Of a DNA stretch of 64,000 nt, positions 60,381-64,000 are shown piece by piece. The DNA comes from a virus: the IMG/VR virus record IMGVR_UViG_3300005253_000487, positions 1 through 64,000 of that record, one strand, 5' to 3'. Position 1 is the stretch's first letter, and every line of letters begins with the position of its first letter. A program made the translations under genes and the position numbers. The notes beneath the pieces are model-generated. The model saw only the letters and a program-made list of their open reading frames with translations, was not told the origin of the DNA and made no database searches.

Positions 60381-61285
60381 ACAGCAATGTCTGCCTTGAT
60401 GGGTGGGTGTGGATTGTAATTGTGCAGGATGATGTCCGTGGCTGTGAAGTCGTCAATCTGTTCCACGTTCACGTTCAGGGACACCTTGGGCAATTGCCTA
60501 CTTCCGCGCTCGATTTGTGTCTCCGCTTGTTCAAAATGATTGTGGTAGAGATGCACATCTCCGAATGAGATGGTCAATGTGTTAGCCTTCAGCCCTGTCA
60601 CACGCGCCACCATCATTGTTAGCAGTGCATAGCTGGCAATGTTGAAGGGGACACCGAGGAATACGTCGGCGCTCCGCATATACATATGGCAATTGAGGTA
60701 GACGGGGTGTGGTCCGCCAGCCTGATACGCGTCCGCGGCCTCTGGTGACACTAGCACTGCGGCCCTCATGCGTTCCTCTTCGTGTGCAACTCCAGGGGTT
60801 ACTTGGAATTGGAAGAGTAGATGGCAGGGTGGTAGACCCATCCGTGGGATGAGTGGAACGTTCCATGCATTGACAATGAGTCTGCGGGACCATGGATTGT
60901 TTTTGATCTCATCGATTACTTGTGCAAGTTGGTCAATGCCTTCTTGCCTCCCCACGGTGTAGTCAGGCCAATGCCTCCATTGATAACCGTAGACTGGTCC
61001 AACATTGCCAACATTGTCTGCCCACTCATCCCAAATACGGACGCCCTTGTCTTGTAGGGATGTGATGTTCTGCTCCCCGCGGATGAACCACAGCAACTCC
61101 TCGACGACGCCCTTCCACCAAACCTTCTTGGTGGTGAGGAGTGGGAAGTTGTTGCCAATGTGGGTGAGGTTTAACTGTTCGCCGAAGAGGGATCGGCGCC
61201 CGGTACCCGTGCGGTCGGGCATGTCGTAACCGCGACTCATGATCCGGCGGATAAGATAGAGGTATCCTTGGTCAGCATAATTCAT
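60377..61285 (-). CDS. thyA: Thymidylate synthase
   Basis: DRTGTG, FPLLTTKK, ELLWF, LPPCH, RSADVFLGVPFNIASY. Confidence 0.96.
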   Translation of the reverse strand: MNYADQGYLYLIRRIMSRGYDMPDRTGTGRRSLFGEQLNLTHIGNNFPLLTTKKVWWKGVVEELLWFIRGEQNITSLQDKGVRIWDEWADNVGNVGPVYGYQWRHWPDYTVGRQEGIDQLAQVIDEIKNNPWSRRLIVNAWNVPLIPRMGLPPCHLLFQFQVTPGVAHEEERMRAAVLVSPEAADAYQAGGPHPVYLNCHMYMRSADVFLGVPFNIASYALLTMMVARVTGLKANTLTISFGDVHLYHNHFEQAETQIERGSRQLPKVSLNVNVEQIDDFTATDIILHNYNPHPPIKADIAV

Positions 61286-62439
61286 GATACGTCTTCCTTG
61301 AAATGTTGTCGTGTAGGATTAAATGTGCGTTTGAGGCGGGAGGTGCCGAAACGGGTTAGCACGTCATCCACTACTGTACCTCCCCATGTTGCAAACTCAT
61401 TTACCGTAATCTCTTCTTGACCTTGTTTGCCAAGTAATGTGGCATGGTGACCTGTAGTTGTCTCTTCATGTCCTTCCGTAGCAACAGCGATGATAGTAAA
61501 GTCTTGTGCCACGCTAAGGATGGGCTGCCTCTTGCCATGTAGTAGTACGTAGCCTTGCTCAGGGTCATGTAAGTGATCCCGCCGCCGCCCAAGTCTTTGT
61601 GGCACACCGTCTGCATATCCAATCCCAAGGACGGCGATGCGGACGCGTTGTTGTAGGTAGGGTGCGTGGTTGTAATAGCCTACCCACTCCCCCCCTTCTG
61701 CTTCGTGCACACTAACGACGCGAGCGTTGACAGACATAACAGGCCACGGTTTTGGAATCTCAGGGCTGGGCCGTCCGCCGTATAAAAACGAACCTGGGCG
61801 TACAAGGTTGCATTCCCGTAGCGCTGGAGCACGCCATACGCCCGCGCTGTTGGCGATGTGGAGGTAGTGGGGCAGTGGCTTGAGATGTTCTAGCGCTAAC
61901 TCGAAGTAAGAGGCTTGGTGTGTTGTGATGCCGTGGTTGCAATCCGCCGCCGCAAGATGAGTGAATGCCCCATCACAGTGTTGGGCAGCGCACACGGCCA
62001 ACTTCCGCTTGTCTTTCCAGTGGATGCCGTTGCGGTTAAGTCCGGTGTCAATCTCGATGTGGAACGGCAGTCCTTTGTGCCACACCATAGCAACCGCAGG
62101 GTCGTCTATTACAGCCCGGAGCTTCCAGTGTGCGTAGGTGTCTAGGTTGGCAGGGACGGCGGGTGTTAGGACGAGGATGGGATCGTGGACGTAATGCCGC
62201 AGTACAATCCCTTCGTCTAACGTTGCTACACCATAACCCCATACTGGGCCGAAGCTGTTGGAGAGTGCTCTGGCAACCTCCTGCGCGCCGCAGCCGTAGG
62301 CATCTGCTTTGACCATAACAAGGAGTTGTATGTCAACCTTCCCGCGCTCTTCTGCTACCGCGTGGAGTATCTTGGCGTTGGCAACAACGTTGCCTATGTC
62401 GATGGACACCCACGCCTGTGGCCATGCTTGGTGCATCAT
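61282..62439 (-). CDS. alr: Alanine racemase family PLP enzyme
   Basis: MVKADAYG, EIDTGLNRNG, FTHLAAAD, HIANSAG, VRPG, IGYADG. Confidence 0.88.
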   Translation of the reverse strand: MMHQAWPQAWVSIDIGNVVANAKILHAVAEERGKVDIQLLVMVKADAYGCGAQEVARALSNSFGPVWGYGVATLDEGIVLRHYVHDPILVLTPAVPANLDTYAHWKLRAVIDDPAVAMVWHKGLPFHIEIDTGLNRNGIHWKDKRKLAVCAAQHCDGAFTHLAAADCNHGITTHQASYFELALEHLKPLPHYLHIANSAGVWRAPALRECNLVRPGSFLYGGRPSPEIPKPWPVMSVNARVVSVHEAEGGEWVGYYNHAPYLQQRVRIAVLGIGYADGVPQRLGRRRDHLHDPEQGYVLLHGKRQPILSVAQDFTIIAVATEGHEETTTGHHATLLGKQGQEEITVNEFATWGGTVVDDVLTRFGTSRLKRTFNPTRQHFKEDVS

Positions 62440-63425
62440 AATCCGTGTCCGTGCAACAGTGCCTCCCGCTGTTCACGGAACTCTTGTTGGAACAAAGCAT
62501 ACCCAAGCCCAACATCCCACAGTGCTAGGCCCATGGGGTTCACGATGATGGGATATTTATACTGGAGCTTGGGGTTGACGTCAGAGAACTGTGTGACGTT
62601 GGGCGTGAGTGTTGTTTGCGCTTGCCACGCGTCGTGGTAAGGTGTGTGCTGCGACGCGGCGAATTCCAAATCGTCTACCACGATCCACTTGAACCGATTG
62701 AAGAACCCAGGCGTTACGTCCCGCAAGGATGTATTGATCCATAGGAAGGCATCGAACTTGACATCTGTGGGTACCCACTGTCCTGCGCCCGCAGTGGCAA
62801 GGGAAACAATGTTCGCTACATCTACAACCTCCTGCCACGTATCGAAACAATTGGCCTGTTGGCATTGTTCTACGAAGCGTTGCGCCCGTTCCTTATCGGG
62901 ATCGTAGACAAAGAGTTGCGTGTTAGGCCAAAGTTGGTTGATGTAATGTGCCTGCCACTCATGTACGCGCCCAGCTCCAATGAGTGCGATAGCCGGGGGA
63001 GGGACGCCTCGGCAGAATTCCAAGATGGTCATGATAGCAAAGCCCGCCGTGCGTGCATTGCTCAGGTCCGTGCCGTCGAAGACCAGCAGAGGTAATCCTG
63101 TGTGGGCGCAATTCAAAATCGTTATCGCTTGTCCACGGGGTAACCCACGGGAAGTGTTTGGTGGATGGGACGAAACCCACTTCGCACCGAACACTCCTTC
63201 GGGTTCATCTGGATGCCCAACCCACGCGGACATAGTGATGGCGCGTGAGAAGCCAAAGCCCCCGGTCGTTTCCGGGTGACTAAGGTAACCCTCTTCGCCG
63301 AGGCGCGCCTCACCCGTTCGCTGTAAGGCGAGGAGGAGTTCCATCTGCTTCACCATCCAATGGGCATCCCGCAGGTTGACATACTCCGGCGTCCCTGGGG
63401 CCATCGAAACCCATTTGACGTTCAT
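62436..63425 (-). CDS. sbnB: Ornithine cyclodeaminase family, SbnB-like
   Basis: GAKWVSSHPPN..RGLPR...ILN...TG.P...G..LS.ARTA, IGAG, NPMGLA..D. Confidence 0.75.
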   Translation of the reverse strand: MNVKWVSMAPGTPEYVNLRDAHWMVKQMELLLALQRTGEARLGEEGYLSHPETTGGFGFSRAITMSAWVGHPDEPEGVFGAKWVSSHPPNTSRGLPRGQAITILNCAHTGLPLLVFDGTDLSNARTAGFAIMTILEFCRGVPPPAIALIGAGRVHEWQAHYINQLWPNTQLFVYDPDKERAQRFVEQCQQANCFDTWQEVVDVANIVSLATAGAGQWVPTDVKFDAFLWINTSLRDVTPGFFNRFKWIVVDDLEFAASQHTPYHDAWQAQTTLTPNVTQFSDVNPKLQYKYPIIVNPMGLALWDVGLGYALFQQEFREQREALLHGHGL

Positions 63426-63442
63426 GGTCTATGCTCCGTGCG

Positions 63443-63661
63443 TCAATCCACCATTGCTGTGGCACACGCACGGGCTTCATCAATCTTCCCGCCGTCCATA
63501 TCATCCTCAGGCCTTCCGTGCAACTGACGCAGGTTGGCCCACAACTCAACTAAGGCTGGGGCATGTGGGTCGCGCGCGAGTAAGATGAACATGGGTTCAT
63601 CTGGTTCTGCTTTGTCGTAGCAGTCGTTTGGTGTGGGGTTATTCTTCGTTCCCATTATCAC
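63443..63661 (-). CDS. Small conserved phage protein
   Basis: DCYDKAEPDEPMFILLARD. Confidence 0.6.
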   Translation of the reverse strand: MIMGTKNNPTPNDCYDKAEPDEPMFILLARDPHAPALVELWANLRQLHGRPEDDMDGGKIDEARACATAMVD

Positions 63662-63867
63662 TGCCCCCAGGCAGTGGCATTTGCTGCAGAGCCACGTTCT
63701 GTATCATACCAGTCAGTGACAGCGCTTTGGGCAGCGTTGAGTGCGTTAAGTGCATCTGTCTGACGAGACCGTGCAAGGCTTGCCGTCTGCGCCGCTGCCT
63801 CATAGTCGCTCTGCGCGTCAACCAATTCGGCGGCGAGTGTGGCGATGGACTTCTTATCATCTGTCAT
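63658..63867 (-). CDS. Small helical protein
   Basis: 69 aa; overlaps both neighbours. Confidence 0.55.
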   Translation of the reverse strand: MTDDKKSIATLAAELVDAQSDYEAAAQTASLARSRQTDALNALNAAQSAVTDWYDTERGSAANATAWGQ

Positions 63868-64000
63868 GGTGTTAACTCTGGAAAGCCTTTCTGCCGTAAC
63901 CAGGCAGGAGAATAGATAGTCTCCTCGTACATGCGTCCACCGTCTGGGAATAGTGCAATTACAATGTCTTGGGCAACGAAGTGGTGGGCCTTCTTGTGAA
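63864..64000 (-). CDS. C-terminus of PLP-dependent cysteine-synthase family protein (SbnA-like), partial
   Basis: Hand translation ...QDIVIALFPDGGRMYEETIYSPAWLRQKGFPELTP*; only 44 aa visible. Confidence 0.6.
   Translation of the reverse strand, partial: HKKAHHFVAQDIVIALFPDGGRMYEETIYSPAWLRQKGFPELTP

Follow-up and report, generated by a model that had tools for sequence, protein, structure and literature searches.

The DNA analysed here is a window of 64,000 nucleotides, bases 1-64000 of the linear 88,000-bp IMG/VR virus record IMGVR_UViG_3300005253_000487 (estimated completeness 83%), and it was read together with the adjoining DNA of the record. Around the right edge of the window, a chain of minus-strand phage genes carries an sbnA-like and an sbnB-like gene, whose products are predicted to form the pathway to L-2,3-diaminopropionate (Dap), and directly upstream of them lies a gene for a paralogue of QueC that has been remodelled at a conserved tyrosine. 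Genes for FolE, QueD, QueE and a DpdA-like transglycosylase are present in the same record. This gene set suggests, without proving, an undescribed amino-acid-bearing DNA base. Tentatively, and at somewhat less than an even chance, it is proposed that a small clade of uncultured phages makes 7-deazaguanine with Dap linked through an amide at C7, perhaps as the D form in some of them. The argument draws on the family identity of the proteins, the conservation of their residues, the synteny of the genes and the finding that the remaining pathway genes are encoded as well.

The genes of the chain are joined by 4-nt start/stop overlaps, and in the order of transcription they encode the QueC-like protein, the SbnA-like protein, two small open reading frames (ORFs), the SbnB-like protein, an Alr-like protein, thymidylate synthase and a NUDIX hydrolase, with a PDDEXK nuclease and QueD further down:

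genome 64875-65720 (likely true start 65591), minus strand: QueC-like gene, directly upstream of sbnA and abutting it, beyond the window
genome 63864-64874, minus strand: SbnA-like gene, 336 aa (PALP, TIGR03945); the window holds the C-terminal part, 63864-64000
63658-63867, minus strand: small ORF, 69 aa, between sbnA and sbnB, with ATGA overlaps on both sides
63443-63661, minus strand: small ORF, 72 aa, between sbnA and sbnB
62436-63425, minus strand: SbnB-like NAD-dependent dehydrogenase, 329 aa (OCD/mu-crystallin, TIGR03944)
61282-62439, minus strand: Alr-fold racemase dependent on pyridoxal phosphate (PLP), 385 aa, with both Ala_racemase domains and a 4-nt overlap with thyA
60377-61285, minus strand: thyA, thymidylate synthase (Thymidylat_synt, E 1e-104)
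59925-60380, minus strand: NUDIX hydrolase, next in the overlap chain after thyA (PF00293, E 8.6e-8)
58685-59320, minus strand: QueD, 6-carboxytetrahydropterin synthase (PTPS, E 7.7e-25, 87.7 bits; TIGR03367 QueD, 68.5 bits)

The SbnA/SbnB-type pair

SbnA and SbnB make L-Dap from O-phosphoserine and glutamate in the biosynthesis of staphyloferrin B, and CmnB and CmnK do so in that of capreomycin. A preliminary description of the window, made from its letters alone, had taken the partial, 5'-open ORF at the right edge (63864-63998) for the C-terminus of an SbnA-type enzyme and had pointed to the adjoining DNA for the full gene. The end of the peptide is as quoted there, and the complete ORF of 336 aa, found at genome 63864-64874, encodes a PLP-dependent beta-replacement enzyme of the SbnA subfamily.

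In searches with hidden Markov models (HMMs), the full protein matches PALP with an E value of 1e-53. It scores 274.5 bits on SbnA (TIGR03945) against 151 bits on CysK, so that SbnA is still the top model by about 120 bits, although the score is below the NCBI equivalog cut-off of 349.95. Its top matches in the PDB are SbnA (5D84) and CmnB (8IF7). Lys52 of the phage enzyme, which aligns with the PLP-binding Lys47 of 5D84, does not vary among 21 clade members. Three residues of S. aureus SbnA, Arg132, Tyr152 and Ser185, have been reported to select O-phospho-L-serine (PMC12414870); the aligned Arg133 and Tyr153 are invariant in the phage clade, and Ser192 is kept in at least 90% of it. Across 99 bacterial SbnA sequences, 64 columns are conserved at a level of 85% or more; 61 of them are unchanged in the phage clade, and the remaining three are altered from Asp to Ile or Leu beside the PLP lysine, from Tyr129 to Trp and from Thr196 to Ser.

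The SbnB-like protein at 62436-63425, which the preliminary description had assigned to the cyclodeaminase family, does have the OCD/mu-crystallin fold. Its best NCBIfam model is TIGR03944, with 142.5 bits (E 1.5e-41) against 51 bits for the next model and an equivalog cut-off of 326.9, which is not reached. The top PDB matches are SbnB (4M54) and CmnK (7CXS), and a Rossmann motif for nicotinamide adenine dinucleotide (NAD) is present. All three phage copies have the bacterial residue at 27 of the 41 columns conserved in bacterial SbnB, and these include most of the polar columns. The order of the two genes is also that of bacteria, sbnB coming after sbnA in 42 of 78 bacterial metagenome loci with an SbnA homologue.

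Because both proteins score below their equivalog cut-offs, their membership is called on the grounds of residues and synteny, and they are not taken as proven isofunctional enzymes. On these grounds the two are genuine members of their families and are predicted to form an SbnA/SbnB-type L-Dap pathway, and the models, the PDB matches, the kept residues and the sbnA-sbnB order agree with the phage-encoded Dap pair that had been suggested earlier. All the elements named in the preliminary description lie at the positions given there, and their homology matches are too strong to be due to chance.

The pair is rare in phages. About 20 relatives of the SbnA-like protein, at 45-67% identity, were found on metagenome contigs of up to 90 kb in a collection of 5.8 billion proteins, and below these the identity steps down to bacterial SbnA at about 40%. 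Among the GenBank phage records no true counterpart of SbnA or SbnB was found, the matches being contigs of S. aureus or other hosts filed as phage, or ordinary cysK or cysM genes. Scans of IMG/VR with SbnA, SbnB and SbnA-clade profiles returned nothing beyond the record itself.

The QueC paralogue

Immediately upstream of sbnA, the abutting gene encodes a QueC-family protein (PF06508, 100.6 bits), which scores 81.7 bits on the QueC equivalog TIGR00364, for which the cut-off is 150.3. Its relatives fall into 12 clusters at 56-87% identity, after which there is a fall to canonical QueC at 29% and 71 bits. With a clade profile, no member was found in the genomes of 185,579 prokaryote species (one genome each), the best match being 32% identical, and a scan of IMG/VR with the QueC-like profile gave no match. 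As judged from these sequence searches, the paralogue is a member of a phage-only clade.

All 13 clade members keep the SGGxDS PP-loop, VPGRN and the four-cysteine zinc site (C-x7-C-x2-C-x2-C in most), and in all 13 the Tyr-Pro of the YPDC motif is deleted. An aromatic residue is kept at this place in each of 18 comparison QueCs, nine of them bacterial and nine from phages (Mufasa8, Dp-1, Quesadilla, 9g, CP220, HVTV-1, phi-pp2, pf16 and RHEph26). In E. coli QueC, the Y131A mutation abolishes function and Y131F is only partly active (Libby et al. 2026, PMC13329287). Neither a second QueC-family gene nor QueF was found in the 88-kb record. It is proposed, with a probability that falls only a little short of even, that the paralogue couples 7-carboxy-7-deazaguanine (CDG) to Dap instead of ammonia.

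An AlphaFold2 model of the paralogue (predicted local distance difference test, 82) is placed by Foldseek about equally near QueC (3BL5, 2PG3) and Cap9 (9NTO), so the fold does not discriminate between the possible functions. The listed ORF begins with a TTG and is thereby 43 codons longer at the N-terminus; since all relatives start at a Met that matches residue 44, this extension is probably an artefact of ORF calling.

The cassette in other contigs

The QueC-like, SbnA and SbnB genes travel together as a three-gene cassette. Besides this phage, the synteny was read directly in two more phage-like contigs, L004 and L005. L004 is 4 kb long, its proteins are 50-64% identical to those of this phage, and it carries overlapping genes for SbcC, the QueC-like protein, SbnA, SbnB and ThyA. 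L005 is more distant (36-51% identity), and in the 17 kb read of its 34.6 kb the QueC-like gene is followed by a pentapeptide-repeat ORF, SbnA and SbnB. When all proteins of this phage were compared by phmmer with the six-frame translation of L005, only the QueC-like protein, SbnA and SbnB were found to be shared. L005 is phage-like, with a PurZ-type synthetase (L005:12831-14039; PHROG 1211, 183 bits) two genes downstream of the cassette. The racemase is absent from both contigs, and thyA is absent from L005.

The two small ORFs that the preliminary description had seen after sbnA are present at 63658-63867 and 63443-63661. The 69-aa ORF has no match in Pfam, and the 72-aa ORF none in Pfam or PHROGs. 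Neither is present in L004, in which sbnA directly overlaps sbnB, and the 72-aa ORF is absent from L005 as well.

Contigs of 68,812, 90,792, 88,931 and 62,277 bp hold close relatives, and an SbnA relative (P0004) and a QueC-like relative (P0127) are each found on a contig of 90,792 bp. Among bacterial loci, no QueC occurs in 78 sbnA loci, and neither QueC nor Alr occurs in the 42 in which sbnB comes after sbnA.

The conservation of the cassette bears on a rival account, in which two separate functions merely adjoin: the QueC paralogue would be an ordinary, fast-evolving synthase of preQ0 or 7-amido-7-deazaguanine (ADG) for the DpdA pathway, and SbnA, SbnB and the racemase would make L- or D-Dap that serves a different purpose, for instance as a metabolite, in manipulating the host or in an effect on the cell wall. 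That three genes are kept together in the otherwise unrelated contig L005 argues against this account, as does the absence of QueC from the 78 bacterial sbnA loci, whereas the mixing of unrelated nucleotide-metabolism genes in early and middle phage operons is in its favour, thyA, NUDIX and PDDEXK nuclease genes standing in the same chain here. An ordinary enzyme would likewise agree with the intact PP-loop, VPGRN and zinc site and with the variation of known phage QueCs at the YxQxH motif, but not readily with a clade that uniquely lacks the residue required for preQ0 synthesis in E. coli. Moreover, no consumer of Dap (nonribosomal peptide synthetase (NRPS), ATP-grasp enzyme or siderophore synthetase) was found among the approximately 60 proteins scanned. 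The account is considered unlikely.

In L005, the genes after sbnB encode a PHROG 2971 protein (L005:11922-12824) and the PurZ-type protein, an adenylosuccinate-synthetase homologue of the aminoadenine pathway; the L005 phage may combine two base modifications.

Genes of the 7-deazaguanine pathway

FolE, QueD and QueE, the enzymes for CDG, and a DpdA-type transglycosylase are all encoded in this phage. Apart from QueD, they lie beyond the window, as does a phosphoribosyltransferase gene near them:

genome 75786-77015: DpdA-like protein, 409 aa (recognized by a profile of homologues)
genome 77012-77701: FolE (172.8 bits)
genome 77656-78462: QueE-like radical-SAM enzyme (PHROG 2076, 93 bits; TIGR04508, 86 bits)
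genome 79608-80189, minus strand: hypoxanthine-guanine phosphoribosyltransferase (HGPRTase; TIGR01203, 156 bits against a cut-off of 150)

The 409-aa protein has no match in Pfam, Pfam TGT included, or in PHROGs. In the ESM Atlas it falls among viral TGT-like clusters, and a profile of 60 homologues matches archaeosine TGT (E 2.7e-10), bacterial TGT and DpdA 7UI4 (E 1e-5). The catalytic Asp and CxCxxC...H are conserved in its family. The preliminary description had named dpdA, a transferase and ATP-grasp genes as worth looking for in the adjoining DNA; the TGT/DpdA-like transglycosylase is found there, together with FolE and QueE, while the roughly 60 proteins scanned include no ATP-grasp enzyme. 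By sequence, the gene set for 7-deazaguanine DNA modification is complete, the remodelled QueC being its one departure. With Pfam TGT the whole record gives no match, and so it has no ArcS-type gene.

The HGPRTase, near the QueE, FolE and DpdA-like genes, could recycle guanine freed by base exchange into GTP for deazaguanine synthesis. In its listed form, the ORF of queD shares 116 nt with the PDDEXK nuclease gene (59205-59768); because the Pfam match of QueD begins at residue 48 and a Met stands at about residue 45, its real start is probably internal and the overlap not real.

Proposed route and its weighing

In the route proposed, SbnA (with PLP) would condense O-phosphoserine with glutamate, and SbnB (with NAD+) would split the adduct into L-Dap and 2-oxoglutarate, while FolE, QueD and QueE would convert GTP to CDG. 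The QueC paralogue would adenylate the carboxylate of CDG, and an amine of Dap would attack in place of ammonia to give a CDG-Dap amide. Since a substituted amide of this kind cannot dehydrate to a nitrile, the product would stay an amide and no preQ0 would be formed. The DpdA-like transglycosylase would then exchange guanine in the phage DNA for the CDG-Dap base; alternatively, the ligase may use dCDG that is part of the DNA beforehand. Host nucleases should then be kept from the DNA by the charged side chain that the amino acid places in the major groove.

Several observations weigh against this route. SbnA and SbnB do not reach their equivalog cut-offs, and the replacement by Ile or Leu of the Asp after the PLP lysine means that the nucleophile used by SbnA could differ. 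The lost tyrosine of the QueC paralogue might be compensated, so that ADG or preQ0 could still be made. The change of His to Thr at YxQxH in the clade, considered as a sign of new function, was rejected as not diagnostic, because the QueC of halovirus HVTV-1 has the same change. The synteny of the cassette has been read directly in only the three contexts, and FolE, QueD, QueE and DpdA were not found in the 17-kb half of L005 that was searched. One QueC-like relative (P0126) is on a contig of 62,277 bp and no SbnA-clade protein is on a contig of that size; conversely, an SbnA relative (P0002) is on a contig of 68,812 bp, a size at which no QueC-like protein occurs. The co-occurrence of the cassette genes may not be universal, but contig ends or the limits of a word-based search could also explain such mismatches.

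Precedents for the proposed route are known: lysine is joined to cytidine by TilS and to preQ0 by ArcS, and echiguanines are natural amides of CDG.

The changes in SbnA leave some room for the cassette to feed the 7-deazaguanine pathway by a chemistry other than a CDG-Dap amide, for example with a nucleophile other than glutamate, with an amidine formed from Dap and the nitrile of preQ0 (as from lysine in the ArcS route), or with a free nucleobase or nucleoside as the product. The phage SbnA not only is below its equivalog cut-off but also differs beside the PLP lysine (Asp to Ile or Leu) and at Tyr129 (to Trp), and the HGPRTase near QueE makes a route at the nucleotide level conceivable. The 61 of 64 SbnA columns and all three O-phosphoserine-selectivity residues that are kept, as well as the polar core of SbnB, nevertheless point to the usual Dap chemistry, and the presence of the DpdA-like enzyme points to base exchange. 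As for an amidine, no enzyme forming one was found, there being no Pfam TGT in the record and no glutamine-amidotransferase domain among the proteins scanned. Such other chemistry is improbable on balance.

The Alr-like racemase

The Alr-family gene that had been described as overlapping thyA, at 61282-62439, encodes both Ala_racemase domains and shares 4 nt with thyA. Its product scores 176.5 bits on Alr (TIGR00492), above the cut-off of 168, and 192 bits on VanT-G, short of the cut-off of 460. Lys44, Arg136, Arg214 (the equivalent of Arg219) and Tyr256 are invariant in the alignment, in which the earlier reading of LSVAQD in place of GRVxMD, with the PLP lysine and the catalytic tyrosine kept, is also seen to be correct. 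Three derived changes are common to the three phage racemases: GRVTMD to L-(S/H)V(A/S)QD, that is, a deletion and a Met-to-Gln replacement in the GRxxMD strand; SYG to GYY; and Tyr354 to Asp. Position 354, on which two alignments agree, is Tyr in most aligned cellular homologues, including every complete one named as Gemmatimonadota. Tyr354 restricts the pocket of Alr to alanine, and it is replaced by Asn in VanT, Pro in BsrV, Thr in Lyr and Ala in Bar (PMC4542195, PMC3485190).

With Asp at this specificity residue, the enzyme would not be a strict alanine racemase. The altered specificity that the preliminary description had suggested from the GRVCMD motif is thus predicted by the derived active-site changes, to which Tyr354 to Asp is now added. 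An acidic residue at 354 suits a substrate whose beta-substituent is cationic or polar. Dap is the obvious candidate given the neighbouring genes, with serine as an alternative; the racemase of this phage and its two nearest relatives would probably interconvert L- and D-Dap, or the enantiomers of serine. A VanT-type serine racemase was considered and rejected, since residue 354 is Asp and not Asn, a membrane domain is lacking and the score is far below the cut-off.

Only two close relatives were found, which are 58-59% identical; the contig of one measures 68,812 bp, as does that of the closest SbnA relative. After these come alanine racemases with 43-45% identity, and those that are named all come from Gemmatimonadota metagenome-assembled genomes. 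As the gene is restricted to the closest relatives and absent from L004 and L005, it is regarded as a recent, lineage-specific addition, probably captured from a bacterium; the conserved Dap module does not include it, which corrects the preliminary description. The Gemmatimonadota relatives may hint at the host lineage.

thyA and thymidine hypermodification

The thyA product scores 347.9 bits on NF002497, above the cut-off of 327 for the thymidylate synthase equivalog, and has a C-terminus of the thymidylate synthase type. Compared with the thymidylate-synthase models, whose matches fall into two or three separate stretches, it carries about 28 additional residues (roughly 168-197).

The position of thyA directly after the Dap genes, in L004 too, raises the question of whether it encodes a hydroxymethylase of deoxyuridine monophosphate, with Dap being appended to 5-hydroxymethyldeoxyuridine (5-hmdU) in DNA; other phages are reported to attach amino acids to 5-hmdU (PMC5889632). 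Thymidine hypermodification was rejected, as thyA is an ordinary thymidylate synthase by both the equivalog model and the C-terminus. In addition, no 5-hmdU DNA kinase or aGPT-Pplase-type domain was found in any Pfam scan made, and L005 holds the cassette without thyA. Dap on thymidine is accordingly very improbable.

Because thyA is ordinary and the NUDIX hydrolase generic, these neighbours, which had been cited for DNA base hypermodification, are no evidence for it. That proposal itself is supported on other grounds, namely the cassette with the QueC paralogue, the DpdA-like protein, FolE and QueE. Of the three purposes that had been offered for the Dap genes (hypermodification, cell-wall remodelling and a small metabolite), DNA base hypermodification gains real support.

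Other features of the record

A family A DNA polymerase (genome 73424-75781) has an N-terminal domain of the uracil-DNA-glycosylase superfamily. A Mre11-like phosphoesterase and a SbcC/Rad50-like ATPase are joined in a single 1126-aa protein (genome 65683-69063). No near match to this phage at the DNA level was found among GenBank phages.

Comparison with known systems

The phage pair is like SbnA/SbnB of S. aureus and CmnB/CmnK in its matches, residues, Rossmann motif and gene order. It differs from them in being phage-encoded and only about 35-40% identical, and in having Ile or Leu for the Asp after the PLP lysine. Furthermore, no siderophore or NRPS genes are near the phage pair, and its partner is instead the QueC paralogue.

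With the known phage systems for 7-deazaguanine DNA modification, this phage has in common FolE, QueD, QueE, a QueC-family enzyme and a TGT/DpdA-like transglycosylase. It differs in that its sole QueC-family gene is without the YPDC tyrosine and stands in a cassette with genes for Dap synthesis. Eight derivatives have been described (dPreQ0, dADG, dG+, dPreQ1, mdPreQ1, fdPreQ1, dCDG and dDG), none of them with an amino acid, and PLP enzymes are not mentioned in either report (Hutinet 2019, Cui 2023). In the full-text literature, no paper was found that links SbnA or Dap with 7-deazaguanine or phage DNA, and none of the clusters in the 2026 QueC-family survey is described as having neighbours of this kind (Libby et al., PMC13329287).

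Members of the QueC family are known to act on amines other than ammonia. Cap9, of type IV CBASS, and QatC, of Qat defence, ligate CDG to the N-terminal amine of a protein (PMC13329287). The paralogue is like them in the QueC fold (Foldseek to 9NTO, TM score of 0.80 by target length), the PP-loop and the zinc site, and the proposed attack of an amine other than ammonia on a CDG adenylate would be a further likeness. However, Cap9 and QatC serve bacterial defence and have protein targets, and Cap9 keeps the YxDC tyrosine, whereas a free amino acid and the modification of phage DNA are proposed here.

A second parallel is CmoY of Synechococcus phage S-B43, an ATP-dependent amide ligase that gives rise to the 5-carboxymethylcytosine-glycine amide in DNA (PMC12783734). 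In both cases a phage enzyme would join an amino acid through an amide to a carboxyl handle on a DNA base. The base, the enzyme and the pathway are different, and the glycine, a common amino acid, is drawn from the host pool, in contrast to an amino acid made by the phage.

The racemase is like Alr, VanT, Bsr, Bar and Lyr in its Alr fold, PLP lysine, catalytic tyrosine and equivalents of Arg136 and Arg219. VanT, Bsr, Bar and Lyr have also lost the Tyr354 gate, but none of them has Asp in its place. The phage racemases show, in addition, the deletion and Met-to-Gln change in the GRxxMD strand, and they have no membrane domain.

DNA hypermodifications are a main counter-measure of phages to restriction and CRISPR, and a source of enzymes for DNA chemistry. 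If the proposed coupling of Dap to CDG is true, its product would be a new class of base, the first 7-deazapurine in DNA to be conjugated to an amino acid. It would also give SbnA/SbnB a first role outside siderophore and antibiotic biosynthesis, placing the Dap pathway in nucleic-acid chemistry, and, with Cap9 and QatC as the earlier cases, the QueC scaffold would have been turned into an amine ligase independently for a third time. To our knowledge, no dedicated Dap racemase has been described, and the racemase with Asp at its specificity gate could be the first.

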